Shown here: positions 11,071 to 45,309 of the stretch, piece by piece
Layout of the letters: the number at the start of each line of letters is the position of its first letter
How positions within the stretch are numbered: the first letter of the stretch is position 1
The notes under the pieces: generated by a model
The model's input: only the letters and a program-made list of their open reading frames with translations
The model's database searches: none
Told to the model about the DNA's origin: nothing
Position numbers and translations under genes: made by a program
NCBI GenBank assembly: GCA_035221665.1
Contig: CM069143.1
Location: 20,646,001 to 20,710,000 of the forward strand
Length of the DNA stretch: 64,000 bases
Reading direction: 5' to 3'
From: Okamejei kenojei
Taxonomy: Eukaryota

Positions 11071-11230
11071 ATGGTTACTATATTATAGTACCAATGGTCA
11101 TGAATTAGTGCATGTTGCGCATAGTAAACCTACTATCCATCTATACCGAGGAACAGTGCCATTCCAGCCTGGATTGATATAATTGATACAATTGTTAGCC
11201 AAATAAAAATTTGGATAACAAAAGCATATA

Positions 11231-15150: not shown

Positions 15151-17511
15151 TTCTGCTCTATCGGAAAACAATTTTTTTTTTCAATTTCTAATATTTTTTA
15201 ATTTCTTGTTTAATGTCAACACCAATGCTCACCACATTGTGATGGCTATGGCCAGCAGCTCTGAAATAAATTGCCGGCGTTCAGGTGCTCTCTGTAAAAT
15301 GTGTCCTCAATTCAACACTGTACTGCATTAAGATCAATGGGAGCCGAGTGACAGATGTTAATATATCCATCTTGCTGCACCTTTACTAGACATCGTATGC
15401 AGTCCAGTGGCGGTATCTGTGTGTCGCACTGAGGAGTCTCCTCCTCGATCCCGAGCTAACCAGTCTTGCATTCCCCTCATTCTGATACTGACTCAATTCC
15501 TGACCCAGAGAACAGCTGTTTACCATGTTACGATTTTATATTATTTTTAAGGATTTTACCTATTGCATTAACTCCTTCGAAATTTGGCTCTGTTTAATTA
15601 TTGAAAGCAATTTTATTGGTTTTAAATGGTTCTGTATGCAAGCTAATTTTAAAAACTCTTCCAGAACCTCACAGGCTATGACAGAAGTTGAGGGTCTGCT
15701 AAGATTATTTATGCCTTTCTGCTGTTCTCATACATACAGTATTTGCAGGATGCACGGTCATATGTACAGGATGCACGGTCATGGGAAGAGCAGGTCTATG
15801 AGTCTGCCCGCAGGCTAAATTATACCGTTTGGTTCATTAGACCTGTCTACAGTACTGTGACAATTTTTTTTTTCATTTTGTACAGTGGGTTGCTTGTTCC
15901 TGTTTTAAAATCCTTCAGATACTTTGCACATCTTTCATTCTAATTGTGCGGCGCTTGTAAGACAAGATGGATGGGTTAACTTTTAATTTTTCGGCATTGC
16001 GGAAAATATAGTTACTGGTAATTAATCAGATACAAATTCTGACATAGATAGTATGTCAAACCTATCAGCATATAGCCTGTGGTACTGTGGTAAGATATTA
16101 TGGAAAAAAGTATTTTCAAATTAGAAGTGAATCGCAATTTTACTTCGGAGTCACGTGAATGATTCCGTGAAGAAGCCCCGCCAGAGTGCCTGCGCATCAT
16201 TACGTCTGACGCGTTTGGCGCACTGACAGGCTGGAGAGCGCAGCTCCACCAGCGGTAAGTAAAACACCGCAGGTAAGTATTTTAAACTTGCGGCAGTTTA
16301 CTAGGTCCCGTAAGGCTGGTTACAGGAGCCAGCAGGGACACTTCGAAAGGAAGAAAAAAATATTAAACAGTGAAAATGAGTCGAGTGTGTCGCCAATAAA
16401 GCAAAACTTACCCGGGCTGCGGTCAGTGGGTGTACGCCGGCTTTGAGACGCTAACTTCAGAGCCGCCGACAGTTCAGCCAGCGGCAGCAACTCCGGTACT
16501 TTAGAGCATTGTGGCCACTCCTGTCGGGAGGCAGGCCAAAATTGTCCAGGCCTGTCAACTCATCTGAGTGAGGCCAGAAAGACTTTCCCCCTTCCAAAAA
16601 TAAAGGTTGGGGACATTTGGACAATGTGGAACACCTCATAGATAAAATGCTCAACCAGGAGGTGTTCCAGCCAGGGTTTTATACCCCAGGGTTCCCAGCA
16701 GTTTTTAGCAACCTCTAGCAGAGGTCTGTATAGCAAAAGAGCTGCACACGTATGAAGGATAATATGCCTATGAGTCTGCATGTGGACCCATAACAGTAGC
16801 GCTTTTTTAAGGGCTGCATGATACCTTCCGTGAGCATGGGCCGGGAGAGATGGGGCAGTATGAATCTGACCCTGAAGTTTGGTGTCACTGCTTATATACA
16901 TACACCGAAGCACATGAGCTATGCTCCAGGTGTGCCGGATGTGACCAGCAAATGTGCCATACCGGCGGGAGCTGGTGAAGTCATGGATGACAATCTGGCC
17001 AGCAATTTAATTATATGGCAACTCACCAGCTTCAGGACTCCGTAATGGAGGAAACTTCAAAACAAGAGATATCTCCTCAAAATATCAGATGCCTGTTATC
17101 TGTGCATCGCTCTAAAGGGGCGCTTCATTAGGGAGCATGAGTTAAGGCTTCAAAAAGTCCTAAAAACTGGTTGGAGCAGGAATAATGGCGTTTGGGCAAA
17201 TGGTACAAGGGCACCACTATCAAAACACAGCAGGATATGGACCCTGCTGTGTAATGCCTATTTTTAACATTAATTATTCACAAAATAGCCATCAAGCCTA
17301 CGCTCAACCCATTGTTCACAGCCTTGCGCAGATCCTCTAATATCCAGGAAAAGACCTGGACGATGAGGCAAAAACAATCGGCCTCATCAAAACTCATCCC
17401 GAGACCAGGATGCCGCCTCAAAAACCATACCCTTTCAGAACGGGAAGGTGTAATTGAACTAGAGATGATGGTGCAGGTCAAGTACCAAGCTGGGCGACCT
17501 CAGCTACACGT

Positions 17512-17597
17512 ATCGCTCTTCGGGGTTTTTGGCTAAGATCAAGTGCATCATCTGTGCTTATCAGTTTAATATCTGATATGTCCCTTACTTAGGGACC
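17512..17597 (+). pseudogene. RNU2: U2 snRNA 5' fragment (~86 nt) inserted in DIRS copy 2
   Basis: ATCGCTCTTCGGGGTTTTTGGCTAAGATCAAGTGCATCATCTGTGCTTATCAGTTTAATATCTGATATGTCCCTTACTTAGGGACC matches the U2 5' end (stems I, IIa, IIb). The branch-recognition GTAGTA is mutated to GCATCA and there is no Sm site. Confidence 0.92.
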
Positions 17598-18982
17598 AAA
17601 ACATTGGCATGCTCTAAATGCACACCCCAAACAGGGCCAGGAGACTGAGGAATCCAGCAACCATGAAGTCCAGGATATATCCTCTAGAGGTCAGTCACCT
17701 GTCAGGGGTAGGTTGCAATTATTCTATGATACATGGTGCTGCATAACATCATATCTATTCATACTGGACTGTATCCGGTGGACTGGAATGGGGTTTATCT
17801 CGGAAGTACATCCACCCATACAAAGTACACCTAGTCGGGTATTGGGTTTTCAATACTAGAAACTCAACAGGTGAATGATGAAATTGGAATATTATTCCAA
17901 AAAAGGGATAATGGAAAGGACGGCATATCAGCCTCAACAATTTGTGTCCATTATTCCCCAGGCAAAAGAACGATGGTGGGTGTCGAGTCATTCTGGACCT
18001 AACCAGACTTCGACTCTTAGGTCCAGTATAAACATTTTTAAAACTGGAACTTTCAGTACTGCTAAGCAACTGGTATCAAAAGGGTGTTATATGGCAACCA
18101 TAGATCTGAAAGATGCATATTATTCAGTACCTATACCGTAGATACTTGAAATTTAGTTGGATGTGACAGCTGCAGCAATTTAAAGTTTTGCTCAATGGGT
18201 TAACCTCAGCCCTAGGTTATTTACAAAATTGTTGAAACCAGTATCAGGGTTACTCCGCGCTCAGAGTTGCATTGTAATGGCATACTTGGATGATGTTTCT
18301 GATCATAGGTAAACTCAGGAAGCAGCTGAGGAATTGTGTTCAGTTACCAAACCTGTTTGAGAGATTAGGTTCCTCACCCATCTAATTAAATCCAAATTAG
18401 TACCATCTAGAATGATTGGCTATTTGGGGTTCATCATTGATTTAACTAACATGTCAGTTACTTTGCCTATGGCCAAAACTGTAAAATATGAAGGCCTGTA
18501 GGAATCTGGATGATGAACAACAACCCTCCATCCGATGAGTAACCAGTGATATTGGTAAATTACTGGCGGGTTTTCCTTGCAGTACAGTTCGGACCTCTGC
18601 ACTATCAGAATGTGCAATGAGCTAAACAACAAGCACTAAAAGAACATGCAGGTCATTTCAATAGACCAATGCAGTTGTCAGCCGAAGCTATCGTCAAGTT
18701 GCGGTGGTGGATAACTAATGTCTCATGATGTACTAGAGACATTCTGACTCAATAACCTTCAGTTTACAAACTGATGTGAGTGCTTCGGGGTGGGGAGCCA
18801 GTGATACCAAGTCTAGTTGCGGCGGCAGATGGAATGTGGAAGGGGCATTAATCCTGCAGAGGCATGGGGTAAATTACGTAGAATTGCTGGGTGCATTCTA
18901 TGGCCTAAAAGCATTCTGCTCAACAATGCATGATTTGCATGTGCAGCTTCAGATTGACAAAACCACAGCTGTTGCATATCAA

Positions 18983-19563
18983 TGTTAGGTACTTCCCCCC
19001 CCCCCCCCCTCTGGTGAATGCTATGTACTTAACTCTTGTGTTTCTCTCCTGAGTGCAGGCCCCGTGGCTGGGAGTCAGGAATCAAGGGGTTAAGGGCTCC
19101 TGTACCCGATTGGCCAAGCTGCGTCAGGTGACGGTGACTCATCGGAAGCTTAAATACCAGAATCTCCCAGAATTCTCTCTCTCTTCGTCGACCCTGGCTC
19201 GGGAGCAGGTTGCTGGTGTGAGTTGCAGGAGGCCTGGCCACATGGCATAGAACTTTGTGTATTATTAGCTACATTTGTCAAGTAATATTGAATTGGGACA
19301 GATAAGGGCTGACCTGAGGATTTTTGTGTATTTTGTTTCAGGGTTATTTCCATTTAGGCAGGTTAGAGACTCTAGTTCGACGGCCCATTGCGAGGCTGGC
19401 TGGAGCACTGTTATCTTTGTTTATTAGTTTATTCTTGTCCTTGTCTGGGTTGTTTGAATCAGGTTTGAGTATTAATTAAATAAAAGACTATTTTCTTGAA
19501 CTTGAGCCTGGTTTTTGACTATGTTACGCAGCTCTGAAGTTCCTGCATTCGGGAGTCGTAACA
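18983..19563 (+). mobile_element. Solo LTR (581 bp) inserted in DIRS copy 2 RNase H
   Basis: TGTTA...TAACA termini, a perfect 5-bp TSD ATCAA on both sides and AATAAA near 19480. Removing it restores AYINHMGG. Confidence 0.92.
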
Positions 19564-22159
19564 ATCAATCACATGGGTGGAATTAGGTCATTATTATGTG
19601 ACAATCTGGCTAACCTCATCTGGCACTGGTGCATTACGAGAAACATCTAGTTCTCAGATATCTACCTACCAGGTAGAGATAACTTGGAAGTGGAAAACAC
19701 CAGGTCACGTAAATTCAATGACAACGCAGAAGGGATGCTGAATCCAAAAGTTTCAAAATGATTATCAGCTGGTATGGATAGCCAGGCATAGATCTGTTGC
19801 ATCCAGGTCAAATCACCAGTCACCTAAATACGTCTCATGGGAACTGGATCCAGGGGCAGTAGCGGTGGATGTATTCTCGCTACATTGGAGACGTACGTTC
19901 TTGCGCTTTTCCCCCATTCTGCCTCATCAGTGAATGTCTCACCAAAATAGAGCACGACTACGCTTTAGCCTTTTGGTAGTTCCTAACTGGTCCACACAGC
20001 CATGGTTCCCATTGGTTCTGAGACTGATGACACAGCCATTCATGACTATCCCCAAATGCAGCAACTTATTGATTCACCCTGGGACAAGAGAGAGTCACCA
20101 TTTACATGATTGTATTAATCTGTTGATTTGTATCTTCTGACCAGACTGTTCCAGGGACTCAGACTATCGAGTATGACCGTGGATGTGATTACGGTGGCCT
20201 GGCGAGATAGTACTAAAACACGATATATATCTCATATTAAGAAATGGCAGATGTTCTGTTTATAGTCAAATATATCTTATCATACTGCAGGCATACCTTG
20301 GGGTTCCTTGCTACATTCCATTTTGACGAGCAGTTAAGCAATAGTGCCATTAATAGTGCTCGAAGTGCTTTGTCCTCCTATTTCGGGCAAGGGTCCGGCC
20401 AACACTGTCGGATCTCATCTATTGGTGGCCCGATTCATGAGAGGTATTTTAACAAAAACCCTCCCAGACCTAGATATACGGAAATCTGGGATGTGAGCAT
20501 CATTCTCACACTGCTTCGGCAATGGGCGCCAATTACATATCTGCCTTTCCAGAAGTTAACGCTCAAAGTGGTCATGCTCATGGTGCTAGTGTCAGCGCAA
20601 TGGGTCCAGATATTGCAAAAGTTACAACTGGACAGCATGCATTCTTTTGTAGATAATATTACGTTTTATGCACATGATCTAATCAAACAAAGCAGGCCAG
20701 GGATGGCTGGAACCAAAATAAGCTTAAACTATACCCCATTGACCAGAGACTATGTGTAGTTATGCACCTGAGTCAATATATTAAGGTCATCAAGAGTCTC
20801 AGAGGCTCTGAAACAGCGATGCTCATCAGCCACAAAAAAACCTCATACAAAGGTGTCAGTACAAACTATTTCTAGATGGCCGAAACAGGTTTGTATTATG
20901 CTAGAGTAGACACTGATGTGTGTAAATCTCACTCCACCAGGGCGGCATCAACGTACGCAGCAAAGGCGCAGGACGTGCCTTTAGACCAAATCCTCGCCGC
21001 AGGATGGTCCAGTGAAGGAACCTTTTTCACCATTTATGATAAACCTGTCCTCGCAATGGAAGGATTTGGGCATGCTGTTTGGGTTCTGTTTGAGTTCTCC
21101 TTTGCAATTTCCCCTGCGAAAGAGGGGTTATTACCGTTATTTTATTGTTTAAGATGCTCATTGTATAGTTTAAACAATGTTCAATACATTATTTGTTTAT
21201 CCTGTGTCAACCGAAGCAGTGTGTCGTATGCAACTGGATCTACGGCATGAAATCACAGAGCTTTGAAATCTTCACGGAATTACTCACGTGACTCCGAAGT
21301 GAAATAGTAAGATTAAACGAGAACTTACCAGTTTGAAGTTTGATCTTTATTTTATGAGGAGTTACGATGAGGGATTACGTGCCCTCCGCTCCCGGCCCTC
21401 ATAATCGCAAAGATCATCTGGTAGTTCTAGTCTTCTGAGTCTTACTATATCACTTTGACTGTAGTTACTTTGATTTCATGCCACTGCTTTGAAGATTGAC
21501 GCGCAGGTGCTCTGGCGGGGCTTCTTCACGTAATCCCTCATCGTAACTCCTCATAAAATAAAGATCAAACTTCAAACTGGTAAGTTCTCGTTTAATCTTA
21601 CTATTAATTCTCAAGAAAAGTAAGTAGATTCAGCAGATCAAGACTATCTATTTTTGCATGTATTTACACATGCTTTCTCACTCTAATGTGATAAGAGTGT
21701 GGACATCAGAACATTGATTGCCCACAAAAAGAGAAGACTACACCATTCATACAAATTCTGTCAGGTTGTAAATTTAACTTCTCTTTTGCCAACTCTATTC
21801 AGGCCAAACGCCTCTCCTTCACTACATCAATGCCATGGTCTCCTTCCAATTCCTAAATAAACATTAATTCCCTCCTTTAGTCCCTACCCCCACTCATTCC
21901 ACCATCATGTCATTTTGAGAAAGGCAGCTAAAGTATGGGACTACTCTTTGCAGAGAACGATGCAAACAATTATTTATAGATCCGAATTTCCTGACAAAAA
22001 GGGAACAGCATGAACAGAATACCATTAAGTTTCAAACAGACCTATTCATATTCCCTGGAAGAGATGATTTCTGCTTAAAAAACACAACAGATCACTTGAC
22101 TATCAGATTTGTTCCTTAGAGATCAAAGCTAGCTATAGCACTTCCACGTTGCCCGAAAT

Positions 22160-23720
22160 GCATTGTACAAAATTCCTGTTAGAGTGAAGGGCAAGGCTGG
22201 CAACATTAGGGAACTATTATTGACATTGGATGTTAAGGGTCAAGTCAGGAAGGAGATATTGTCAGTAAAATCCAGCTTGGATAAAGCAACTTCCTTCAGA
22301 AGTATAAGGGATGTAGGAGTATACTCAACAAGGAAATTGGGAGATTTCCTTGATAAATAGGGTAAAGGGGAAATCTTCAAAATGTATATTAAACCAGAAA
22401 AATAGCTTGGGTGAGAATAGGTCTCCTTAAGGGTTAGTGGGGTTGGGTTGAAACCACATGGCCTTAAGTGAGGCCTAAATGAATACTTCATGCCTATATT
22501 TACTGTGGAAAAGCCATTGAGTTAAGGGGAGGAGTCAGTAACATCTTGGTGCATATCAACATTACAAGGGTGGAGAGCTTTGAGGTCTTGAAAAGCATTT
22601 GGGTGGATAAATCCATGGGGCCTGACCAGCTTTAACCAAGGGTGTTGTCAGAAGCAAAGGCGGGAGAATGCTGGAGCTTTGGCAGTGATTTGTGTATCTT
22701 TTTTTAACCACGGGTGAGGCACCAGAAGATTGGAGCATAACCAATGTAGTGCCTTTATTTAAGAAGGGAGGATGGACATGTCAGGAATCTGCAGGCAGGT
22801 CAATGGTGCAAATGTTATTGGATCTTACATTATGGATCTGTGCAGTCCATTGTTGTTTCTCAGCTACAAAACATTGGTTAGGCTACACTTGGGGAACTGT
22901 ATGTGTTTTTGGTTGCCATACCACAGGAAGAATGTAGTTAAGCTGCTGAGAGTGCTCAATAGATCTGTAAGGATGTTACCTAGAAATAGAGGGGTTGAGT
23001 TATCAGGAAAGATTTGATAGATTGGGTCTGTTTTTTCCTGGAGTGAAGGAAACTGAGAGAAGACCTCACAGAAGTATATCAATTTATAGGAGACATAGAT
23101 ATGGTGGAAATCCAGAGTCTGTTTCCCAAAGCAGGAGTGTCTGAAACTAAAGGGCTTTAGGTTAAAGGTGCAAGGAAGAAGATTTAAAGGTTATCTGAAG
23201 GGCATATTTTATAGAAGTGACATTGGTACCTGGAAAGAGCTAACAGAGGAGGTTTAGTTTAGTTTTGATATACAGTGTGGAAACAGACCCTCAGCACACC
23301 CAGTCTACACTGACCAGCGATCACTGATTCATACAGGTTCTATCCTACACACTAGGGAAAATGTAAATAAAACGATTAATCTACAAACTTACACATATTT
23401 GGAATGTGGGAGGAAACTTGAGTACCCGGAGAAATCCCGCATAGTCACAGGGAGAACATACAAACTCCATACAGACAGCAACCGAGGTCGGGATCAAACC
23501 CGGGTCTCTGGCACTGTAAGCCAACAACTCTCACGCTGTGAGACTGTGCCGGTGGTGGATGCAGGAACTGTAACAACATTTACAGGTAAGTGGCATCTTG
23601 ACAGCTAATTGAACAAGCATAGAGGGACATGGAATGAATGCAGGCAAGTGAAATTTATGTGGATAGACACAAGGGTCAACATACAGTAGATATGGTGGAC
23701 TGTACAATCCTATGACTGAC
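22160..23720 (+). mobile_element. Decayed, internally deleted CR1 LINE split by a SINE
   Basis: EDWSITNVVPLFKKG and YKTLVRLHL..FWLPYHRK motifs, with a CR1 3' tail near 23600-23720. Confidence 0.8.
23252..23550 (-). mobile_element. HE1/V-SINE
   Basis: On the minus strand: tRNA-like head (ggcacagtctcacagc...ccgggtttgatccc), V-domain and (TAAAC)n tail. Inserted into CR1. Confidence 0.85.
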
Positions 23721-24371
23721 TAAAAGGCTCCTTGTGTAATGAAACAAAGGGTTTTCTGATTAATATTTAAGACTGTGTGTGTCTAATCAGAAGCAGTATT
23801 GTAATATACCATTGAATACTCCAAAAATAGTAGGGCCATTTCTGGATCAATATAATGGATTAAAATACATTTTCGTCATTTGTTTTGAGATCAGTCTAAA
23901 TTGAAAAATGCCCTGTTCATTTACGTATTGACCGTAAAACAGATAATAGAAAATAATGATTCATGTTCAATGGGCAGATATGAATACTTCGAAAATGGAA
24001 AAGACTTGAATAAAAGACTGAAAAAATAACCCTTATGTTTAACTCATGTTTTATGTTTTACTATGTGTAACCTGTTACATTTCAGAGCAAAACGATGCTT
24101 TTTTAAAAATTCGGAGAGTTATTAAATGCAGCTCATGACTAGTATAAAGGGACTGACATTCAAATTGCAAAATCCTGTGGCGTTCTAAGGACGTTTCTTG
24201 TAAATGGAAATTATCTAAAGTAAGAGACACTCAAAGAAGATATGCATTTGCTAACCTACCCAAGGTATTTCATTTGTGCAAAACAAACATTTCCCATTTG
24301 TGGTGGGATTAATGACAGAACATATATCTATTTTGAGAAATTTGCTAGGCACATGTTACCAATGTAAAATT

Positions 24372-24557
24372 TTAGTCGTGAGACTTCATTTATTCTGTAC
24401 TTTCCCATATTGCAGCTTTATAAGACAAGAGACGGTGCTTAATTGTCTTATACACACGGAACTGAACTTCCGGGTGTATATGACAATTAAGCACCGTCTC
24501 TTGTCTTAAAAAGCTGCAATATGGGAAAGTACAGAATAAATGAAGTCTCACGACTAA
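24372..24557. mobile_element. 186-bp near-perfect fold-back MITE with AATT target duplication
   Basis: TTAGTCGTGAGACTTC...GAAGTCTCACGACTAA, with ~88-bp arms carrying few mismatches. AATT flanks both sides and the element interrupts a LINE-tail motif aatg-aaattcttacttgctgcagc. Confidence 0.85.
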
Positions 24558-25507
24558 AATTCTTACTTGCTGCAGCTTTACAGGCATATTAACACAGCAC
24601 CAGCTTACGTATGCCAGGCAACAATCCTGAATTTTATGTCATTGATAGAATTGGGAAATTTCTCAGCAAAAGCCGGCGATAATTCTTTTAGGAGTCGGCT
24701 TTAACGCATATAGTTCTGGATGGCTAGCTAAGCAAATTGTAAACTAACAAATTCCATTTTATGAGAACACAATGATGCAAATAATGGATTTCTGGTTTTA
24801 CATTTATTTTAGGTATAATGAGTTAAATTATGATTTTTAAAAAAATGTTGAATTATATCTAATAAATTCAAAGAAATATATTAAATATAAAATAATGGAA
24901 ATTCGCTTAAACCATTGTAAAATGAATGCTCATATTCCTAGAATGGGAAAGCTAAATATAAGAATAAAACATTCTTACAATATCATAGCAATAAACAGGA
25001 GCAGATTTTACAGTCAGCAATGAGCGGTCAGCCCGTAGTGAATTTTATAAAAGTAATACAATGTATAAAATAGAAAATGTTGGGAATACTCGAAAGGTCT
25101 GGCAACATCTATGGAATTAGAAACTGAATTACTGTTTCAGATAAACAACCATTCATTGGATCCAGGAAACGTTAGGGAGCAACATTGTTTAAAGATCCAA
25201 AGAAGAACGGGTGAAAATAATCGAGTAGAGTAGAGAACAAGAGTGAATGTCACCAGTAATGGTGGTGCTGGCTAAGGGAGGCACAAGGCTTCTTAATCAC
25301 AGGGAATCTGTCTGGAGCAGGTGGAAATAAATGAGAACAGGAGAGAGAAATAGGAAACAATAAAAACATGATAAAAAAGTGTAGTTACTGTAAATCTGAA
25401 ATGTGGGACAATACTGGAAATAATCAAAAAGCAGCTTCCAATTGAGAGAGAAAATTTGTAACAGAATTACTGTTACAAATGGATAACCTTCCATCCAAAT
25501 TGTTTAA

Positions 25508-25632
25508 GAAAGAACTGCAAATGCTAGAAAAATTGAAGGTAGACAAAAATGCTGGAGAAACTCAGCGGGTGAGCAGCATCTACGGAGTGAAGGAATAGGT
25601 GACGTTTTGGGTCGAGACCCTTCTGCAGACTG
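25508..25632. mobile_element. Penelope-derived short repeat
   Basis: GAACTGCAAATGCTAG...GCTGGAGAAACTCAGCGGGT...GTGACGTTTTGGGTCGAGACCCTTCTGCAGACT. Confidence 0.6.
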
Positions 25633-25804
25633 CAGCTGTCAAGGGGCGATTCTGGACTTTGCTGGAGTGTTGAAAGAAGTTAACTCGGTTTACCTCTTTG
25701 TAGGTGTGGCTGGCCTGCTGAGCATTGGAAGCTTTTATTGGTTTTAATTCAGATTTCGAGTACCTGCAGTTTGTTTACCAAAATATAACATGATATATAA
25801 CAAT

Positions 25805-25950
25805 ATACGAAAGGCATTTGGACAGGCTACTTTGATAGGAAAGGTTTAGAGGGATATGGGCTAAACGTGGACAGGTGAGACTAGTGTAGATGGAACATAT
25901 TGGTTGGCATGGGCAAGTTGGACCGATGGGCTGTATGAGCTATGATCTTA
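25805..25950 (+). mobile_element. CR1 LINE 3' tail
   Basis: aaggcatttggacagg...aaggtttagagggatatggg...ggcatgggcaagttggacc. The same tail occurs at ~45730 and ~62140. Confidence 0.7.
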
Positions 25951-26794
25951 CCTTTCACAATCTACCCATTGGCAACTTGCAGAACTGAAGGGAGGATTCT
26001 CCAGGGTGATGCATTTCTGACAATGTAAAGGACCATGTGTGGTGGCCAAACCTATTTCCACACACAAACTAAGAAAGCAATGACCACCAGTTAAGCCATG
26101 CCCTCAGACTGAGCTGCATTGTCAGCTTAAGTCTCCAAAAACATCTTGTATGGGTCTGGATGTAACTAGCAAAATTGTCATTCTTGAAAATCTATCTGAT
26201 TTGTTTGTATGCCAGATGCTCTTATGAAAAATCAGAATTTGCAATTTTCTTGTGATGTTATCCGGTAGCTCTCAAATTTCCTCCTTTATTGACGCAAGGA
26301 TACATGCCACATAGTCATGGATTTAATAGTCTTAGGAGTTCTGTCACATTACTGCAAAATGAGCAATATTACATATTCAGCACACGGAACTGCAAATGTT
26401 TCAGACAAATACAATAAATTAAAGCAAAACCTGAAAAATCATTAAAATTCTTCCACTCATTTTAAAATACTGTTACACAATAAAATACTCAATCCATTAG
26501 TGTAAAATCAAACTCATGGAAAGGTTTCAAAGAGTATTTTTAAATGAATACCTTAACTGAAAGACCTTTTAAATACCAAACACTAGCCTGTGGCTCTCAC
26601 AACTGTTCCCTTCCATCAAGATCAACCTGTGTGTACCTACTCCCTGGTTCATCTTGATGTATAAGTTGGATCATTAACTAATATTTCTGTTTTCTTATTG
26701 AACTCCCTTCTGAGTCTAGCACTGGAGCACAGTTTACTGCAAATCACTATTGTTAACTTTTGGAGTTACATATTTGTAAGAAATTGATATATCA

Positions 26795-27640
26795 AAGAGG
26801 TGGCATTCAGCCACCTGAATGCCATTCACTAAGGTTAGGGTTAAGCTGATCTTTTACCTCCGAAACATTTTTCTGTACTATCGCCATTGTTTCCTTTAAT
26901 ATCAAAATATCTTTCGATCTTTGCTTTGAATATGCTCAGCAATTGAACCTCACAGCCCTCTTGGGTGTCGAAGTTGCAAAGACTCACTGCCCACTGGATG
27001 AAGAAATGTCTCCTTCTCTGAGATTTGAACGGTTGATCCCTCATTTAAGGGCCCGTCCCACCAGCGTGCGACTCCATGCGGTGAGCGCGACCAAACCGGC
27101 AGCAGGAGCCGCGCGGAGGCCGGGCGAGTGGCGCAAAGTTGGAGCGAAGTCCGCGGTAAGTTTGCAAGGACAGAGGGACACACAGAGAGAGGCATGGAGG
27201 CACACAGAGAGAGGGCCACGGAGGCACACAGAGAGAGGGCCACGGAGGCACATATAGAGAGGGTCATGGAGGCACATATAGAGAGGGACACGGAGGCATG
27301 ATGTCGAGGCGGCTGCAGGCCGACAGGCCGTTGCCGCGCAGAATTTTTGAACACTGTCAGTTTTTCAGAGCCCCGCGCGATGTCGGGACCAGCTCCGCAC
27401 AACTCCATACGGCTCCGGCGATTGAAGTAGGACCGGCCCCGCGAGGCCAGACGGCTCAAGCGACCACGTTAGTTCCCGCTCACCGCATGGAGTCGCATGC
27501 TGATGGGACAGGCCCTTTAGTCACTACATTTCCAGACATTCCAATCTGTCATCAACCTGCCTTGTCAGGGCCTCCGATAATGTTGTTTCAATGAGTTTAC
27601 TCATATCTTCTAAATTTTGGAGAATTTAGGCCTGTGGGTT
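26795..27640 (-). mobile_element. CR1 LINE 3' fragment split by a Harbinger MITE
   Basis: Minus-strand RRHFFIQWAVSLCN..LSIFKAKIERYFD is a CR1 C-terminus. Confidence 0.7.
27048..27516. mobile_element. PIF/Harbinger MITE
   Basis: TTA|AGGGCCCGTCCCACCAGC...GCTGATGGGACAGGCCCT|TTA with ~35-bp TIRs, a 3-bp TTA TSD and an internal 24-bp tandem repeat (27175-27298). Confidence 0.9.
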
Positions 27641-28379
27641 TATTTCTTCCTCTCACTAATTCCCCACCCCCACAAACACACTGCCCCCATCCCAGTTATC
27701 AATCATCATAGTGCTCTCTCAATTCACATGCACAGGATAAAAAGCACAGTTGCTCTTTATTATGTGGGGCAACACTGAGAGTTTTGGCTTTCACATTCTT
27801 CCAAATCCAGCCCAATATCAGATAGAATCTAAAATGAATGAAAGAGTGACATTTTGAATGTTTAAATATTTTGAAATATTTAATGCATATTTTCTGCAGG
27901 CATTTTGTCATGACAGATTTAATTATGCGCTGTTCGGTTTCTGATGAACATGTAATACTGCTCACTTTGTAGTTTTATGGCAGAAATACCTCATAGGCTA
28001 GGCATGTTAATCCTGGCCAAATTGGAGAGGCTAGGACCCTAAAATTGAGTAAAGGCTTCAGGGCTGCTGGGCCATTTGATCAATTTAAAAGTGCTTTCTG
28101 TACAAATGAGATAAGCTGCAGAATTGCGCCAGTTTGTCTAGAGCCTAGATCAGAGCTGCAGGAAGAGAATGGGATCATCTGGAGACCCTGACAATTAGGT
28201 GCAAAATGCATAGAATGGATTGGATGAATGCAAACCAGACATACACATTGTAAATAATGTTCCAAAGCTTTACTTTGCTGGATGTTGATTGGATTAAGTA
28301 TTGAGCCATGTCTGGTTTTATTGCATATCAGGGCTCATGTTGCGATGTTCGTTTCCTCTGAGAAACACTGTTTGAATAC

Positions 28380-28736
28380 AATGTATTAGCTACTTTATTA
28401 TTGGGTTAGGGAAATGTATGGGGTTAATCGATATCTGTAATTGGATTGTAAAGAGACCACCCCCATGTGGTTTGGCCCCTCGAGGTCCGGGGACCTTAAA
28501 AGTCTGCTACCACGAGGTCCCACGTCGATCTTCTGAGGAAGCGCTTAGGACTGCTTGACCTTCTGGAGTGTCTCTGTTTGAGCGAGGCCAAGAGGACTTG
28601 ATCAGGCAGATACGAGGATCGAACCTGCAGTGGTTAGGTACAGTAGTGGGGAGTGTAATTGTGTTTTGTCAAAATAAAATTTAGATGGGCAAGTGCTTGA
28701 CTCAGCGATTTTGACTGAAACTAGACTGGGGGAAGC
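28380..28736 (+). mobile_element. Possible truncated LTR-like fragment
   Basis: TATA-like TTAAAAG (~28496) and downstream AATAAA (~28673) in an LTR-like layout. No clear termini or TSD were found. Confidence 0.3.
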
Positions 28737-30269
28737 TTAGAAGTCGGAGTCACGAGAGTGATTTTACTTCGGAGTCACGAGAGTGACTTTGTGAAGACCC
28801 CGCCAGCATGCATGCACGACATATCGTCGTACGTATTGCACAGCGATAGGCTGGGAGGAGCGTTGCTCCTCTACTGGCAAGTTTAAAAAAGGAACCCTCA
28901 GGTAAGTACCGCTAACCTAGAGTGGTTAGGGCACTCTGCTTTCCTATTTGTATTCCAGAGTACCCACTACCTTGAGCAATGGAAAAAATTTGAGGAAAGA
29001 AACGGGCCGCTACCCGACAGACTGCGGACCGCGGGACCGCAGGCAGTAAACAGTGGGCAACACCTGAGCTGGCCGTTGAGCATTCGGCAGCCCCCGACTT
29101 CCTGCCGCTACAGTCCGGAGGAACACCGCGGACTGGTGGTAAAGCCACCCGGAAGTCGGCCAGCCCCATTGACTCGGCTGAGTCCGGGCCTGACGACCTG
29201 CCGTTCGCGGGTAGCGACAGCGGTCAATTATCCCGCATGGAGCGGATTGTGGAGCAGGTCCTCCAACGTGACCTACTCCAGCAGGAGTCTGGTCACCGTG
29301 GGTCTCTTCGCAGACCCACGGCAGTCCCCTTTTCAGGGCTGCCCAATGTCTCACCCTCTTCGCAGGGGAGCATTAGGAGTCAGGGCTGGGCTGACTCTGA
29401 AGAGGGGTTGGCTGAAGAACCCAATATGCTTGGAGTGCAGAAAGAAGAGCTCCTGGGTATGGTATCGAAATTTGCAATACCATCCCAGAAGTGACAGCCG
29501 TTACAACCGCAGCTGGCGGAGAGCATTAATTACCTAACAACACACCAGCTGCAGGAGCAAGTTATCACTGATACCATGGCCAAATACCTTGCTCCAGAGA
29601 ACAGTGTGTCTCTCAATGTACCGGCAGTCAACAACCCCATCTGGGGGAACATTAGTCCCGGCATCAGGGCTCAAGAGATCAAGATGCAGAAGATATTAAA
29701 GTTGATAACTGTGGGAATTACAGCATTTGCCAGATCTATAGATGGCACTGATATGACGGATGAGCAACAGGACGCTTTGGCACTACTTTGCAACGTCCAG
29801 TTTGAAATTAACTGCTTCAGAAAAAGCACGATCCATCCTACACTCAACCCTAAATTCGCAGGGTTGTGTAAAACTAGTAGCACACCGCTGCCTACTCTGC
29901 TGTTCGGGGACAACATTCCGAAACAGGTTAAAGACCTTGATGAAGAAGCAAAAGCGGTGGGCATGATCAAGGCACCGACTATCATCAGGTCAACAGTCAG
30001 CTGGCGGCAGCACCCCTATGCAACCACCAACAGGGCCCGCTACCATAACGACAGGACAGCGGGTGAAACACCGAAGGCCGCACAACCCACACAAAGGTCT
30101 TTTATAGGCCGTCCCAGATTGGCCTTCCTGGAAAATGCGGCAACCCCACACCACAGCATCTCCACCTCCCAAGAACCAAGGATGGAAGAAGCTGACCCAG
30201 TGCCACCGGTAACCATGGAGGTAGGTGGGTCTGGTTGCCTTGGGAATATCGCATATGTAACTTCACAAA

Positions 30270-33200
30270 TAGGGGGTAGATTACACTTGTTTTGGGATGC
30301 ATGGAGATCTATAACTTCTGATCTCTTTATATTACACAGTAATGAGGGATACAAAATTGAATTAATTGACAAACTCCTCCTACCAGTTCAACATGTACCT
30401 AGCCAGAAATTTGTGCTTTCACAAAAAGAGAAAGTGGAAGGTCATGCGGAACTACTTAGATTGTATTCTAAAGCCCCTATCCCACTTAGGAAACCTGAAC
30501 GGAAACTTCTGGAGACCGTATGCCCCACCCAGGTTTCCATGAAGTTCCCAGAGGTTCCCGTGAGGTTCCCGGGGGTTCTGGTCATTCTCCACGAGTCACC
30601 AGAGGTTCTGGTCAATTGCCTGGAGAGCCTCAACCGAAGCGTGAGCTGCATCTTTGCTGCCGACCGGGCACACACACACAAACACATCGTGAAGGTGGGG
30701 GCCAGGGACAGCGGAGGAGCGCTCTCTGCGTGTTAAAGAAGAAAGTAAACGGCTGCCACAGAGCACGGTAAGTCCTTTAGAGAGCGCGGGAGGGAGGGAG
30801 AGAAGGACAGAGAAGGGGAGAGAAGGGGAGAGAATGGGGGGAGAAGGAGTGGAGACAGTTTAAATAAGTTTAATAAAGTTAGCGGGCATTTTACCTTCCG
30901 GCAGATCTTCCCACTTAGGAAACCTGAACGGAAACCTCTGGAGACCTTGCACCCCACCCAAGGTTTCCATGAGGTTCCCGGAGGTTCCTGTCACTCTCCC
31001 TAATTGTGGAAAGTGGTTTCCGCATATTCGCGGCTTCTGCTATGTTCCTGCGATTATTTCAAAAACCCCAAAACAGGCTGCAACTAAAAATAGGTTGCCG
31101 TTTTGTCGAACCCAGTGGTGGGGTCGCATTTTTACTTACAGCCAATCGAAGGCCTTCACTGACCGGCCAGTCTGATTGGCTCATTGGAGTTTTCAGCAAA
31201 TAAATCTTATTTGGTTTTCAGGACCTAGAAGATCCACCGGAAGGTAAAATGCCTGCTAACTTTATTAAACGTCCTAAAACTATCTCCACTCCTTCTCTCT
31301 CCCCTTCTCTCTCCCCTTCTCTCCCCTTCTCTCTCCCTTTCTCTGTCCTTCTCTCCCTCCCTCCCGTGCTCTCTGAAGGACTACCCGTGCTCTGTGGCAG
31401 CCGTTTACTTTCTTCTTCACACTCAGAAAATGCTCCTCCGCTGTCCCTGGCCCCCACCTTCGCGATGTGTTTGTGTTTGTGTGTGTGTTTGTGCGCGCGC
31501 GGTCGGCTTTGGTCAGTAGATGCAGCTCACGCTTCGGTTGAGGCTTTCCAGGCAATTGACCAGAACCTCTGGTGACTCATGGAAAATGACCGGAACCCCC
31601 GGGAACCTCACGGGAACCTCATGGAAACCTTGGGTGGGGCACACGGTCTCCAGAGGTTTCCGTTCAGGTTTCCTAAGTGGGACAGGGGCTTAAGGGAGTA
31701 ATAGAGAAAACAAAACATGAACCTCTTGAGTTTGTATCAAACATCTTCACCAAAACCAAAAAAGATGGTGGATGCCACATTATCATTGACTTGACACAAC
31801 TGAATACTTTCGTGCAATATACCCACTTCAAAATGGAAACATTTGTAACTGCTAGTTTCCAGAGGTTACTTTATGGCTTGCATCGACCTAAAAGATGCAT
31901 ACTCTTCAGTACCCATACATGAAGATCACTGCAGATATTTGAAATTTATCTGGATGGGGCAGCTATGGCAGTATATAGTGCTGCCTAATGGACTAACAAC
32001 AGCCCCCAGACTATTTACCAAAATACTGAAACCAGCATTGGCGTCTCTTCGGAAACAAAAGCATATTGTCATGGCGTATCTTGATGACATCCTAATTGTG
32101 GAGAAAACCTTGGACTGGCTAAATTGGCTGTAACAACCACCAAGCTTCTATTATAAAAACTGGGATTTATCATCCATCCAGACAAACCCAAGTTAAAGCC
32201 TTCTGTAATAATGGATTATCTGGGGTTCACGATCGACTCTGTTCATATGACTGTCACCTTGCCAAAAAGCAAGGCGACAGACTTAATAGAGGCTTGCAAT
32301 AGCCTTGTTTGCGCCAGTAAACCAACCATTCGACATGCTGCCAGGGTAATCGGGAAACTTGTGGCTGCATTTCCAGCCAGACAATATGGACAGTTACATT
32401 ACCAAAATTTACAAAGAGCCAAAATTTCAGCACTCAAATCTCACGCTGGTTATTTTGACAGGCCTATGCAGCTACCGGCCAAAGCAAAAATCGAATTGCG
32501 ATGGTGGATTAGCAATATTCGACATTGCTTTAATGCCATCACAATCACAAACCCTTCGGTTGTGTTACAAACTGACGCCAGCGCTCATGGCTGGGGAGCT
32601 ACAAATACCACCTCCAGTTGTGGTGGTAGATGGAATACACACAAATCTACCTTACTTCGGACACAAGGTATTAATTATTTGGAAATGTTGGGAGCGTTTT
32701 ATGGACTGCAGGCCTACTGTACAGATATGCACTCTCTGCATGTTCGCCTACAAATAGATAACACCACAGTGGTGGCATATAGTAATCATATGGGTGGTAT
32801 CAAGTCGATATCTTGTGATGAATTAGCAAATTCAATCTGGCACTGGTGCATAGAAAGAAACATTTGGATATCAGCTACCTACCTTCCAGGTAAGCTCAAC
32901 ACAGTGGCGGACACCACGTCACGCATATTCAATGACAACACCGAATGGATGATGAACCACCAGGTATTTACCAACATTATAGCTAGGTATGGAACGCCAG
33001 ATATCGACCTTTTTTCATCTAGACTTAACCATCAGATACCAACATATGTCGCATGGGAACCAGATCCTGGGGCAGTAGCGATGGATGCTTTCTCGCTACA
33101 CTGGGGGGATTTGTTTTTCTATGCATTTCCCCCTTTCTACCTCATCAGTTGGGTATTGCGGAAAATTCAATTAGACTCCGCATCAGGGATTCTGATAGTA

Positions 33201-33359
33201 CCCGACTGGCCTACGCAGCCATGGTTCCCTGTGGTCCTCGACATGGTGAAAGAACCATGTCTCCCGATTCCCAAATGCCCGAATCTCCTGGTACATCCCG
33301 TGACAGGGGAAAATCATCCGTGCCATGATTACATGAACCTGTTGGCTTGCAGATTCTGA
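30270..33359 (+). pseudogene. DIRS copy 3 pol (RT, RNase H, methyltransferase-like), disrupted
   Basis: Motifs GGRLHLF, IDLKDAY, YLDD, TDASAHGWG, INYLEM, DLFSSRLNHQ, YAFPPF and PDWPTQPW. Interrupted by a MITE and frameshifts; the C-terminal 382 aa are open. Confidence 0.92.
30472..31690. mobile_element. PIF/Harbinger MITE, long fold-back (1219 bp)
   Basis: TAA|AGCCCCTATCCCACTTAGG...CCTAAGTGGGACAGGGGCT|TAA with ~430-bp inverted arms and a third TIR copy at ~30910. Excision restores LYSKGVIEK. Confidence 0.93.
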
Positions 33360-34330
33360 ATAGACCTCTCCTGGAGTTCGGGCTGATGGACAGGACCATG
33401 AACATCATCACGGCGTCGTGCAGGGAGTCCACCAGGAGACAATACCTCACCTATGATAAAAAATGGGAGGTATTTTGTTCCAGGACTGGCACCACATACA
33501 ACTCTGCCACCGTTACGGACGTACTGGAATTCCTGGCTAGCCTTCATTACGTTGAGGGCCTCAGTTATAGTGCCATCAACTGCGTTAGGAGTGTTTTATC
33601 GTCCTACCTCGGGCTTGGGATAGAACACCTTGGAGTGGGATCCCATCCGCTGGTGTCTAAACTTATGAGGGGCATTTTTAATTATAATCCTCCCAGGACT
33701 CGATATTCTCAAACCTGGGATATTGGACTGGTCTTGTCCCTGCTTTGGGATTGGGCTCCAGTCATGTCACTCTCAGTGACCAAGCTCACCTACAAGGTAG
33801 TGATGCTGATGGTACTTGTTACTGCACAGTGGGTCCAGACCCTGCATAAATTAAAATTGGATACCATGGTATCGACTCCAAATAAGGTGACCTTTTATAT
33901 AAACAAGTTACTTAAACATAACCGACCTGGGTCATCTGGCCTAAAATTGGAGTTTCTGGCCAATCCATTAGACAGATGCCTTTGTATAACTACCCACATT
34001 CGGCATTACCTAGAGGTCACTAAAAATCTCAGGGGTATGGAAATGGGCCTTTTAATCAGTTTTAAATGCCCTCACCACAGGGTAACTGTACAGACCATTT
34101 CAAGGTGGCTCAGGGTGGTGTTAGGTGCAGCAGGGGTAGACACTGATGTTTTCAAATCGCATTCTACCAGGGTTGCATCTACATCAGCGGCGAGGATGAT
34201 GGAAGTTCCCATGGACCACATCCTCGCAACGGCGGGTTGGTCCAATGAGTCAACTTTTCAATGGTTTTATAACAAACCTGTGACCACACCTGCAACTTTT
34301 GCAGATACTATTTTAAGTTCTTTTTCTTAA
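33347..34330 (+). CDS. DIRS copy 3 tyrosine recombinase, full-length ORF but first catalytic Arg replaced by Trp
   Basis: 327-aa open frame with HSTR, AGW and FYNKP. TAQWVQ stands where copy 1 has SAQRVQ. Confidence 0.85.
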   Translation: MQILNRPLLEFGLMDRTMNIITASCRESTRRQYLTYDKKWEVFCSRTGTTYNSATVTDVLEFLASLHYVEGLSYSAINCVRSVLSSYLGLGIEHLGVGSHPLVSKLMRGIFNYNPPRTRYSQTWDIGLVLSLLWDWAPVMSLSVTKLTYKVVMLMVLVTAQWVQTLHKLKLDTMVSTPNKVTFYINKLLKHNRPGSSGLKLEFLANPLDRCLCITTHIRHYLEVTKNLRGMEMGLLISFKCPHHRVTVQTISRWLRVVLGAAGVDTDVFKSHSTRVASTSAARMMEVPMDHILATAGWSNESTFQWFYNKPVTTPATFADTILSSFS

Positions 34331-35179
34331 TTTCCCCGAAGTTAGGGGTTTATTATTTGTTGTTAATACATACATTATTGTTTTTCAGCTCTGTTCCAAG
34401 TCTGAAATATGTTAACATACTTCCTCCATTAGTCATTATGGCAGTGTGTGAGCATGGACTCGTTTTCAGGGCATGAAATCACAGAGCTTTGAAATCTTCA
34501 CGAAGTCACTCACGTGACTCCTAAGTAAAATTGTAAGATTAAACGAGAACTTACCAGTGATCCTTATTTTATGAGGAGTTACGATGAGGGATTTTGTGCC
34601 CTCCCAACCCTCTATTATAAGGTCAACTGGTATGTTAGTTCTCTTATCTGACTATCTTCAGTCAACTCTACTATCTGTGATTTCACACGGCTGCTTTGAA
34701 GAATGTCACGCATGCGTGCTGGCGGGGTCTTCACAAAATCCCTCATTGTAACTCCTCATAAAATAAGGATCAAACTTCGAATTAGTAAGTTCTCGTTTAA
34801 CTTACTATTAATTCTCAAGAAAAGTAAGTAGATTCAACACAACTGAAGATGTGTCTGATTGTTAGCAGAATTCACCTAGTGGTCATACCCAAGAATGTCA
34901 ATTGTAGTGAAATCTTAGGGATTGTAACATCCAGTCCTAATAATCAATTACTATTTACAGACACACCAATGATCTTTAAATCAAAGACCATCAAATCCTA
35001 GATCCTTGGGCAATTAAGGGAGGACATTTGAGGGGTACTGGATAGCATCACATGAAAATCATAAACCCTAATGGGATTTTATGAGCTTCTGAATACAAAC
35101 AAATCAAATAGATTTTCAAGGATAACAAATTTTCCAGCTACATACTCCATAGCCAATGATCAATTCTAAGTAAATAAAT

Positions 35180-36190
35180 ACTGAGTGGCTGCATCACGGC
35201 CTGGCTCAACATCATGAATACCCAGGAACAAAGGAGACGATTGAGAGTGGTGGAAAGCTTGCTTCATCACAGGTACTGACCTTCCCATCATCAAAGGTAT
35301 GTGTAGGAGACACTGCCTCAAAATGGCAACCAGTATCATCAAACATCCACACCACACAGGTCATGCTCTCATTTCGCTACTACCATTGGGAAGGAGGAAC
35401 AGGAGCCAGAAAATGGTGATCACCAGTATCAAGAGCAACTTTTTCCCAGCAACCATCAGGCTCCTGAACACTATACACATTAACCTCAGCAACTGCGATC
35501 TTCTACGGACTGTGTCTTTGATTTCATTTCAGATTTAGTATTGCATTATTCTGGTTACCTGGGTTATTTATTTATTATTATTATTAGTTATTAATATATT
35601 GTATTATTACCTATATAAGGTAGTTTTACTGGGCAATTTTAGTTCGTATTTTGATTGGTCAAAAAACGCGCAGTTTCCAGCGGGCAATATTACTTGGTAT
35701 TTTTCTTCTTCCGAGTTTCGCCATTGACTTTACGTAGAAAAACTGCGGTCAATCACAAAGATGAAATATTACGAACCCTGGGCGTACATCCGGGACACGA
35801 ACCCGGCCAAAGTTCACCGCGAAGAATCATGTCACGGCGCAGTGTAGTGCACTGTATGCAATACGTGCACGAGAAAATGCAGACGATCGTGTGAATCTTA
35901 GGAATTATTTTAATTTATGTGGGGATAGGTAATAATTATAATATTGACTGGCTTCTTTCGGGAGACACCAGGAAATATTGCTTCGACTTCGTCTTCGACT
36001 CGGGCAATATGATTTAAGTTTGGGCAATATTTCCTGGTGTATCCCTCAAGGCCAGTCAATATTATATAATTATTGATTATTATATATTTATCTGTGATAT
36101 ATTGCTTTTACAGGCTTGTTAAGCTGCAGCGAGTAAGAATTTAATCGTTCTGTTGCCAGTACATATGACAATTAAATATGCTTGACCATT
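35180..36190 (+). mobile_element. Rex1/Babar-type LINE 3' end split by a hairpin element
   Basis: LSGCITAW...LLPLGRRNRS...NFFPATIRLLN C-terminal motifs and a tail ending atatgacaattaaa. Confidence 0.7.
35613..36069 (+). mobile_element. Crypton-like non-autonomous element with 3' terminal hairpin
   Basis: CpG-rich 457-bp insert bounded by ATATAA direct repeats. A long hairpin at 35938-36065 (ATAATATTGACTGGC...GCCAGTCAATATTAT) has inner arms ACACCAGGAAATATTGC / GCAATATTTCCTGGTGT. Family assignment is by recalled resemblance only. Confidence 0.55.
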
Positions 36191-37258
36191 GAGTGGAATA
36201 TGCAAGGGGATTAAATCGGAGTTACAGTAATGTTGGGAATACAATTGATAAATTAGCTCCCCATGTTTTAAATTTGAAAGAATATATTTTGCAGATCGGC
36301 TATTTGAATTTAAGAAGGCTGAATTAATTCTACAGGTTTTTGGCTGCAACAGAGTTGAATAATTGGACAAAGTCGTACAAGCACAACCAATTTGCTGGTG
36401 AGAGTGAAATTATTGGAATAGAAAGATGCAGCAAAAGATGCCGGATGCACTAACCAAATGCTAAATAAACTTTAACATGGACAGGCTAAGGAAAGAATTA
36501 TCGATTTCAGTAAACAGAAAAATAAAAGGAAGCAATTAAAAAGAATTGCAGAGAATGTGAAAAGTTGGCTAGAGTTATGCTGAAACTTAATGAAGTGTTA
36601 ACCAGATCATAGTTATTGGCCATAAAAAGCACAGATGAATAAACCTTCAAAGAGAACTACAACAAAAGACAAGACAAACTTAATGGTTGCTGTTTGGAAA
36701 GGGATTAGTAGGGAGTTTTAAATTGCATTCTACAGTTATGGTAGAGCAGCAACAAATATTCATATAGAACTTCAAAATGTTGCAAATAAACACGATTTGA
36801 AACAGCTGCATATGGAGAAGTCAGGATTCATAAACAAAGAGGTGGGATTTAAGCACCACCTTGATGAAGGAAAGGCAGGTAAAGAGTCCAAGAGGAGCAG
36901 AGAAATGGAATATTATTTAAAGGAACGATTAAAGAATGGGATTAAAATACATGAAAATCTGTTAAAAATAAACGTTACAAAAAACATTAGGAAGAAATTC
37001 TATGAAAGACTGCTTGGAATATTTTTTCAGAAAGTGTATAATTATCCTTGTTGTTCAGTGCAATTTTACATTTGGCAATATCTGTAGATCTGTAAATTTT
37101 ACCCTGTACACCCATGTCTAAATCATTTGATTTTTATCAAGGACAGTAGTATTCTCCATGGTGACCCCTGAGAAATTACAATAAACATCATTGTAACGTC
37201 TGAAAAGGCTATTTTACTTCGGAGTCACTTGAGTGATTCCGTGAAGAAGCCCCACCAG

Positions 37259-37270
37259 TGCGCATGCGCA
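37259..37270. promoter_or_regulatory. NRF1-type palindrome in DIRS left ITR
   Basis: TGCGCATGCGCA, mirrored in the right ITR at ~45193-45203. Copies 1 and 2 also carry a TCACGTGA E-box at the left terminus. Function is inferred. Confidence 0.4.
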
Positions 37271-42821: not shown

Positions 42822-43584
42822 TTACGTCTTGCATCTTGCTTTTTAGGGTGGTCTATAAAAGAGCAGATAGGTCAGCACCGTAGACCCGACCTTCCACCCG
42901 AACACTGGACAGACGAGTTGTAAATATAATTCATATAAATCCTCCTCACGGACACATCTCCACAAATAATATTTGTAAATAAATTCAAGCTTAATATAAT
43001 AATTAGGTAGGAAATCCAAAAAGTAAAAAAATAGAAAATTAATTAAATGAGAAAAGAAAGAAGAAACTACATCTAAATTTAGTGTAGTTAGTGCTAGCCA
43101 CACTAATGTGGCTGTCCATCTAAAGACTTCCGTAGATTTAAAAAAAAAATGTATTCCTAGCTCCATGCTTACAAGAAAAATTTGAATATGAGTAATTTAC
43201 GGGATTATATTAAAACTATTTTGGACCAGAGTATTGGTAATCATATAGTGAGGGACTATTATTCTCTTAGTTAGTTAGTCTAATGTAGATAAAGGGTGAA
43301 CATCACAAATTCCAATTAATAAGATATCTAAATTATAACTTTTTATTTGTTGGTTTTTTATATTTAACATATCATGTTTTTAACTAATTGCTCCAATAAT
43401 AATAACAAGTGTTTTTGATGATTAGTAATTGTTAGTAAAAATTAGTATTAAATATTTAACAAATAATATGTCCCTAACAGGGGGATCAGCACGATTGTCG
43501 TTATCAGCTTTCAATAGTCCTTGAATATAACGGATTAAAGTTCCATTTGTTCTCAGCAAGATGATGGTATTATATGTAAATTAT

Positions 43585-44697: not shown

Positions 44698-45309
44698 AGG
44701 CTGCCGGAACGATTTCTGCAGGTCAGTTCCATATTTAGTTCCTGTTTTTTTTTCGGTCTTTTCGCGTGGAGCTAGTTGGCACTCACCCTACTCCACCATT
44801 AGCGCCACCGGAAGTCCGCTATTACTGTTCTTTTGTTACTAAAAACATTCATTTGTATAATTCAAACAATGTTCAATACATTATTTGTTTATCCTGTGTC
44901 AACCGAAGCAGTGTGTCGTATGGAACTGGATCTACGGCATGAAATCACAGAGCTTTGAAATCTTCACGGAATCACTCACGTGACTCAGAAGTAAAATAGT
45001 AAGATTAAACATGAACTTACCAGTTTGAAGTTTGATCTTTATTTTATGAGGAGTTACGGTGAGCAATTACGTGCCCTCCACTCCCGGCCCTCATAATCGC
45101 AAAGATCATCTGCTAGTTCTAGTCTTTTGAGTCTTACTATATCACTTCGACTGTAGTTACTGTGATTTCATGCCACTGCTTTGAAGATTGACGCGCATGC
45201 GCACTGGCGGGGCTTCTTCACGTAATCGCTCACCGTAACTCCTCATAAAATAAAGATCAAACTTCAAACTGGTAAGTTCTCATTTAATCTTACTATTATT
45301 TACCACTGT

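Follow-up and report, generated by a model that had tools for sequence, protein, structure and literature searches.

A 27-bp flank shared by two DIRS-like elements of the skate Okamejei kenojei is best read as a templated insertion at the 5' junction of a truncated non-LTR retrotransposon

DIRS1-like tyrosine recombinase (YR) retrotransposons are described as having ATT ends and an internal complementary region (ICR) that joins the two termini at a 3-bp junction, and as integrating without carrying flanking DNA with them (PMC3266345, PMC7192593). For long interspersed nuclear elements (LINEs), reports describe extra nucleotides at the 5' junction that are templated by flanking DNA (PMC4245944; PMC4760211; bioRxiv 2024.08.27.596794), ectopic insertion of distal DNA at L1 sites has also been reported (PMC11702581 and its later version, 10.1101/2024.12.14.628481), and the 5' junctions of R2 have been sorted into annealed, joined and extra-template classes (PMC11331408). 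The locus described here is a 64,000-nucleotide stretch of the genome of Okamejei kenojei (GenBank assembly GCA_035221665.1, contig CM069143.1, positions 20,646,001 to 20,710,000 of the forward strand; below, the window), in which two DIRS-like elements, copies 2 and 3, are both followed by the same 27 bp. The original prediction took these 27 bp for the flank of both elements and offered as explanations an extended YR target, synthesis running from a homologous terminus into the flank, or an artefact. We consider it likely that the second 27-mer instead lies inside a truncated non-LTR insertion at the right end of copy 3 and was copied from the copy-2 junction during repair of the 5' end of that insertion. 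The two DIRS sites themselves are unrelated: the ATT entered by copy 2 belongs to unique DNA, and that entered by copy 3 to the end of a solo long terminal repeat (LTR).

The 27-mer, AATTCTCAAGAAAAGTAAGTAGATTCA, occurs exactly in both places, each time straight after the terminal ATT, and the flanks of copies 1 and 4, the other two DIRS-like elements in the window, are indeed unrelated to it. Together with the last 9 bp of the DIRS terminus, the full exact tract is 36 bp long (21597-21632 = 34801-34836), an identity far above chance expectation. No third match to the 27-mer is present in the window with up to 7 mismatches, and the genome search that the original prediction had proposed as a check returned the same two places only in 2.76 Gb, at 0 or 2 mismatches, while reversed-pattern controls returned 0. 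With two genomic copies, and with the copy-2 flank running into single-copy DNA, the 27-mer is not a member of a repeat family; nor does a segmental duplication join copies 2 and 3, since identity ends at 36 bp.

The left flank of copy 3 is a high-copy repeat starting at 28005, other copies of which are about 760 bp long with 4-bp target site duplications (TSDs). The repeat has a TG start and is a solo LTR. Among 29 other fetched copies, 27 align through 28742 and 26 of those end in TTAGAA; the order in other copies is TTAGAA, six more bases, ATT and TACA. The TTAGAA at 28737 is thus LTR sequence, and a standard DIRS element inserted at that ATT should have TACA behind it; TACTATT-TACA-GACA is found right behind the LINE tail. 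The right junction of copy 3 is therefore an ordinary one, at 34955/34956 on the LTR ATT four bases from the LTR end, and the 27-mer belongs to an insertion that TTACTATT flanks on either side. The insertion reads, in order, DIRS end TTACTATT, 27-mer, last 112 bp of a LINE, TTACTATT again and TACA, so that the true flank of copy 3, beginning with TACA, lies 146 bp further right than had been supposed. The two sides of the LTR, GACA and GGCA, agree at 3 of 4 positions; in other copies the 4-bp TSD is perfect in 11/25 and a 3/4 match in 6/25. The sequence TTAGAAGT, which had been noted upstream of both DIRS left ends, is present at 16121 and 28737, as claimed, and the match is coincidental: at 28737 it is LTR sequence, which rules out a shared target marked by it, and at 16121 two relatives have TTAGAAGA instead. 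The scar at the left junction of copy 3 (Table 1) is a separate local event, repair-like in character.

The LINE piece starts where the 27-mer stops. Its best genomic matches begin at 34837 in 18 of 19 cases and at 34839 in the remaining one, and upstream of the position equivalent to 34837 other copies have LINE sequence and no 27-mer. The family has a common 3' end and variable 5' truncation, its 92 distinct copies measuring 108-3963 bp to the tail core. Two of the long copies contain an RVT_1 domain, and the reverse transcriptase (RT) matches L1 ORF2p and R2 proteins in the PDB. A CPLC..H....C finger and the motif RPD..LTV.WEE..YERK can be read in locus L141, and we take this CCHC finger and this motif to be markers of a restriction-like endonuclease (RLE). 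Pfam and PDB searches with C-terminal LINE fragments gave no matches. The order of RT, CCHC finger and PD..(D/E)xK-type endonuclease identifies 34837-34948 as a putative RLE-type non-LTR retrotransposon. Its GRYTWRHN motif presumably resembles that of the HERO clade; the Atlas returned unnamed or zf-RVT clusters only.

Table 1. Features at and around the right junctions of DIRS copies 2 and 3 (window positions).
Feature	Position	Strand	Remarks
DIRS copy 2 (donor side)	16137-21605	+	ATT at both ends; ICR arm 21303-21381 matches right terminus 79/79
Proposed donor tract	21597-21632	+	the 9 terminal bp of copy 2, then its native right flank of 27 bp (21606-21632)
Solo LTR	28005-28742	+	split near 3' end by DIRS copy 3; origin of TTAGAA at 28737
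Scar at copy 3 left junction	28743-28760	+	GT plus 16-bp duplicate of 28770-28785; other LTR copies have 6 different bases
DIRS copy 3 (recipient)	28761-34809	+	YR-like open reading frame (ORF) 33329-34330; ICR near 34495-34593
Left TTACTATT copy (= DIRS right terminus)	34802-34809	+	target duplication
Second 27-mer	34810-34836	+	extra sequence at LINE 5' junction, identical to 21606-21632
LINE piece	34837-34948	+	last 112 bp of a young 5'-truncated non-LTR retrotransposon; 30-mer with 241 exact matches
Right TTACTATT copy	34948-34955	+	original right junction of copy 3; its first T common with LINE tail
LTR end and flank	34956-34963	+	TACA (last LTR bases), then GACA; 3/4 match to GGCA at 28001-28004

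The direction of copying can be read from relatives, which were compared through public contigs (organisms A to D), contigs being the form of all 16 runs available; a contig can prove that a sequence is present but not that it is missing. The copy-2 site is unoccupied in organisms C and D, a single ATT joining the left flank to the right flank from 21608 on; divergence of C and D is about 7% here (17 differences in 255 bases for C), and both carry one extra A after 21631. Since the empty site holds the native flank in C and D, the 27-mer is native at copy 2 and the direction is from copy 2 to copy 3. The occupied copy-2 junction is found within one contig in organism A (sample S2) and in organism B (14 differences in 415 bases), and the first two bases of the 27-mer, AA, have the A/B state and not the C/D state, also in the copy at 34810. 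At the copy-3 site, contigs of organism B spanning 34894-35510 (X6 and X7) have the LINE tail joined to TACTATT-TACA, as does X5, a near-identical run that may come from the same source as the assembly, with 29 letters on the LINE side. A contig of organism C aligns from 35219 down to 34953 and then has 55 unaligned letters, and the record coordinates indicate that no DIRS end adjoins TACA in that organism. The arrival of both DIRS copies and of the LINE is thus likely to fall between the split from C and that of A and B. At that age an identity of 27 bp is unremarkable, about 1-2 differences being expected by our own estimate from the rates.

In target-primed reverse transcription (TPRT), the upstream genomic end bears a 3'-OH that must join the cDNA. 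We suggest, by extension from established TPRT, that an RLE-type LINE nicked the right terminus of copy 3 near 34801/34802 and reverse transcribed about 112 nt only. The free upstream 3' end, ending in DIRS terminal sequence, would then have annealed with the copy-2 terminus, which is nearly identical and lies 13.2 kb (13,204 bp) upstream on the same chromosome, and would have been extended through the ATT into 27 nt of the copy-2 flank, with 27-36 nt copied in all. Once released, the extended end would have been joined to the cDNA with 0-1 nt of microhomology. Pol theta is a candidate polymerase, and an aborted reaction of the synthesis-dependent strand annealing (SDSA) type would also fit. 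Because such copying would regenerate TTACTATT, the copied length is given as 27-36 nt, and the apparent 8-bp TSD, which may itself be regenerated by the copying, need not mean a staggered cut. The suggestion in the original prediction that primed synthesis had run into the flank comes close to this explanation, having missed the LINE insertion and the duplicated DIRS end.

What is observed at the junction is extra bases between the upstream TSD and the truncated 5' end, a template preceded by homology to the primer end, and a single donor. The donor tract opens with 9 exact bases of the shared DIRS terminus, and the match extends to 26 apart from a 1-bp deletion in the copy 3 terminus between 34800 and 34801, a variant that is matched exactly at 10 places, where the usual form has 24,598; this rare deletion lies within 2 bp of the inferred cut. 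The copy 3 terminus matches that of copy 2 at 72/81 positions and those of the other two neighbours at 70 and 69, copy 2 being marginally best, and the donor is only 13.2 kb off although the terminal 26-mer has 24,598 exact genomic matches. At present the joint between 27-mer and LINE has no microhomology; a donor that retained the additional A of organisms C and D would give 1 nt. Our best reading is one templated insertion at the 5' junction of a LINE, with an unusually distant donor chosen by homology; annealing, polymerase and timing are what we infer from the observed anatomy.

Extra nucleotides (EX) of the same kind, between the upstream TSD and a truncated LINE and ascribed to synthesis from an exposed 3' overhang, are described for zebrafish ZfL2-1, ZfL2-2 and Nimb-2 and for human L1 (PMC4245944, PMC4760211). 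In those reports the template flanks the insert, whereas here it is a paralogous junction 13.2 kb off, reached via a shared transposon end; the present case also belongs to the germline of a naturally occurring lineage and involves an RLE-type element. Somatic L1 insertions likewise contain short copied genomic segments, for which an SDSA-like process has been proposed (bioRxiv 10.1101/2024.08.27.596794; PMC11702581 and its later version, 10.1101/2024.12.14.628481); their templates are described as typically within 15 bp and the cDNA end is proposed to switch, whereas here the upstream genomic end would prime on a distant repeat. Templated insertions made by Pol theta fall in the same size class (mostly <25 bp, sometimes more) and are described as proceeding through primer-template annealing, release and rejoining (PMC12426944). 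Their templates are normally the break flanks, whereas the donor here is distant and a role for the enzyme is a candidate one. A literature search, which did not extend to most subscription journals or bioRxiv supplements, yielded no title or abstract dealing with LINE 5' junctions whose donor was distant and guided by a repeat.

Other members of the LINE family were surveyed at 125 loci, drawn from the 100 listed of the 241 pattern matches and from the best genomic matches. With the window included, 91 copies had a bracketed 5' end; set aside were 7 loci without a 3' end match, 27 sharing a 3' flank and one without a bracketed 5' end, and 11 of those 27 have an extension in common with L132 and are probably separate insertions. 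A TSD score of at least 8 was reached by 11/91 copies, against 4.25% of 400 shuffled flank pairs (1.25% within 30 nt of the 5' end), and a score of at least 10 by 7/91 copies, against 0/400. Clear TSDs range from 17 to about 135 bp, and most copies are without one. Long target duplications were seen in L190 (about 135 bp) and L172 (about 97 bp), and L144 has a 20-bp TSD and 60 extra bases. Twelve loci (L132, L037, L106, L110, L111, L138, L139, L142, L143, L163, L174 and L178) have the same sequence behind the tail; they form either a lineage with 3' transduction or a subfamily whose 3' end is longer. Three extras considered as second examples of a templated insertion were rejected, that of L191 being mostly LINE sequence, that of L099 a TA run and that of L052 an 8-nt repeat of the adjoining LINE bases.

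Several observations weigh against copying from a distant donor during LINE integration. Among the surveyed copies a DIRS right end is found at the 5' junction in 1/91, the window only, no second case of a distant donor could be traced, and the 60-nt extra of L144 has no other genomic match. The 8-bp TSD of the window is modest alone, and gains its weight because it coincides with the DIRS end and with TACA. According to bioRxiv 2024.08.27.596794, templates are usually found no more than 15 bp from the insertion site. Copy 4, which is nearer to the junction (10.5 kb), was not used. The product fits a DNA or an RNA template, and the same event or a later repair; no allele came to light in which the 27-mer and the LINE piece are separated. 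Contigs of the copy-2 junction are unbroken across the 36-bp shared tract, and both junctions bounding the second 27-mer are seen in the assembly only: no contig listed for X5 or X6 runs from the copy 3 end through the 27-mer into the LINE, one of the comparisons being swamped by repeat contigs. A short unique link between two high-copy repeats is a path of the kind that assemblers prune.

The 27-mer might have been added after the LINE, in a separate repair that we regard as unlikely. The LINE would have gone in first, perhaps in a longer form. A later break in it would then have been trimmed to the DIRS terminus, and this end, after invading copy 2 and gaining 27 nt there, would have been rejoined within the LINE. 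Such a repair predicts the same junctions, with homology to copy 2 ending exactly at the terminal ATT, and the 112-bp piece is the shortest of the 92 measured copies; it needs, however, a second break in a short stretch, whereas LINE integration already gives a free 3' end there, and LINE copies of 122-150 bp exist without such extras. Quite unlikely, in our judgment, is an RNA template, the LINE RT having jumped to a read-through RNA of copy 2 ending at 21632 and copied the flank into the DIRS terminus, after which the end annealed to copy 3. The 0-1 nt of microhomology at the joint of LINE and 27-mer accords with a jump, and R2 is described as having an extra-template class of 5' junctions and proteins that template-jump (PMC11331408). 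The RNA would nevertheless have to end 27 nt past copy 2 and be picked by chance, and the sole AATAAA noticed by eye near the copy 2 end lies ~70 nt upstream of 21632.

The original prediction had also allowed for an assembly or polishing artefact that placed the copy 2 flank after copy 3. In its favour, the junctions 34809/34810 and 34836/34837 are not seen in the listed contigs of independent runs. We nevertheless regard an artefact as very unlikely: copy 3 retains its own terminus with the rare deletion, 9 bp before the end; behind the LINE, the second DIRS end and the LTR end are those expected of a natural insertion, and contigs of organism B bridge them; and polishing would have had to replace 27 bases that do not match.

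The idea that both DIRS subfamilies entered one ATT of an extended YR target, copy 3 being moved later together with its flanks, is refuted by the LTR end on both sides of copy 3, by the two genomic 27-mers, by the LTR origin of TTAGAA and by the right flanks of 20 sampled DIRS elements, which agree with the 27-mer at only 4-11 of 27 positions. These 20 are the distinct flanks among the first 30 loci, and row L073+ is probably an ICR. A mild target preference past the ATT is possible: position +2 is T in 16/20 rows (L059-L088), as in the circle junction, and the DIRS ends L083 and L084, about 19 kb apart (G000:C1), have a 30-bp flank in common, which reflects the same host-repeat ATT or a local duplication. 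Some 13-17 flank bases, with mismatches, are common to a few other DIRS ends; by our own estimate this is the chance expectation at this copy number. Independent insertions sharing a flank beyond the ATT at this site, as site-specific extended integration would produce, were not found.

We return to the DIRS elements themselves, in the light of our preferred reading of a templated insertion at the LINE junction. The four copies, all on the + strand, were delimited by self-comparison of the window (copies 1 and 4 at 2570-7465 and 37211-45297; for copies 2 and 3 see Table 1). ATT is present at all eight ends, and each ICR consists of the left end and the right end joined at AAT/ATT, complementary to both termini. 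With an ICR overlapping at the 3-bp junction, and with the same trinucleotide at both ends, matched in copy 2 by the single ATT of the empty site, all four appear to be DIRS1-like, and the right ends of copies 2 and 3 follow the standard model as described in PMC3266345 and PMC7192593 once the LINE insertion is set aside. Copy 3 has a Phage_integrase match (E 2.9e-4, under the curated cut-off) and copy 4 an RVT_1 match (E 3.7e-20); the reading frames of the copies are broken, and no RH or MT domain was detected in the broken DIRS ORFs. The 24,598 exact matches to the terminal 26-mer comprise ICRs and right ends together, and half that number, our own estimate, gives roughly 12,000 DIRS elements in the genome. 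The four copies lie within 43 kb (2570-45297) on the same strand, against a genome average of ~1 per 200 kb. Copy 2 contains a 5' fragment of U2 small nuclear RNA (17512-17630, + strand; Rfam RF00004, 67 bits, E 3.9e-13), and copy 3 is interrupted at 30468-31694 by an element with long inverted arms (83% over 478 bp) that is absent from paralogous contigs. Elsewhere in the window are an inverted-repeat element with a Tc3-type transposase fragment (11202-12869), a 203-bp palindromic element (24364-24566) and a tandem array (53222-53743). No host-gene exon was recognised among the 18 of 44 window ORFs that were scanned.

Reading the second 27-mer as a templated insertion at the LINE junction removes an apparent breach of the DIRS integration model, with no need for an extended target or for carry-over of flanking DNA. 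The specimen is unusually legible: it reveals the primer, the donor, the direction of copying and the sequence of events. It suggests that at a LINE 5' junction the upstream end is able to reach homologous template DNA at a distance of 13 kb, where reports usually give a few bases. It is one case in one LINE family and does not by itself establish a pathway. More generally, flanks shared between repeats can be repair scars. It is possible, although on balance doubtful, that when a LINE cuts inside a multi-copy element the upstream end regularly searches for homology in cis, invades a paralogue tens of kilobases away and copies its flank. If so, this would be a recurrent germline route by which false shared flanks and TSDs are forged, and would leave a genome-wide record of the repeats that were in contact during repair.

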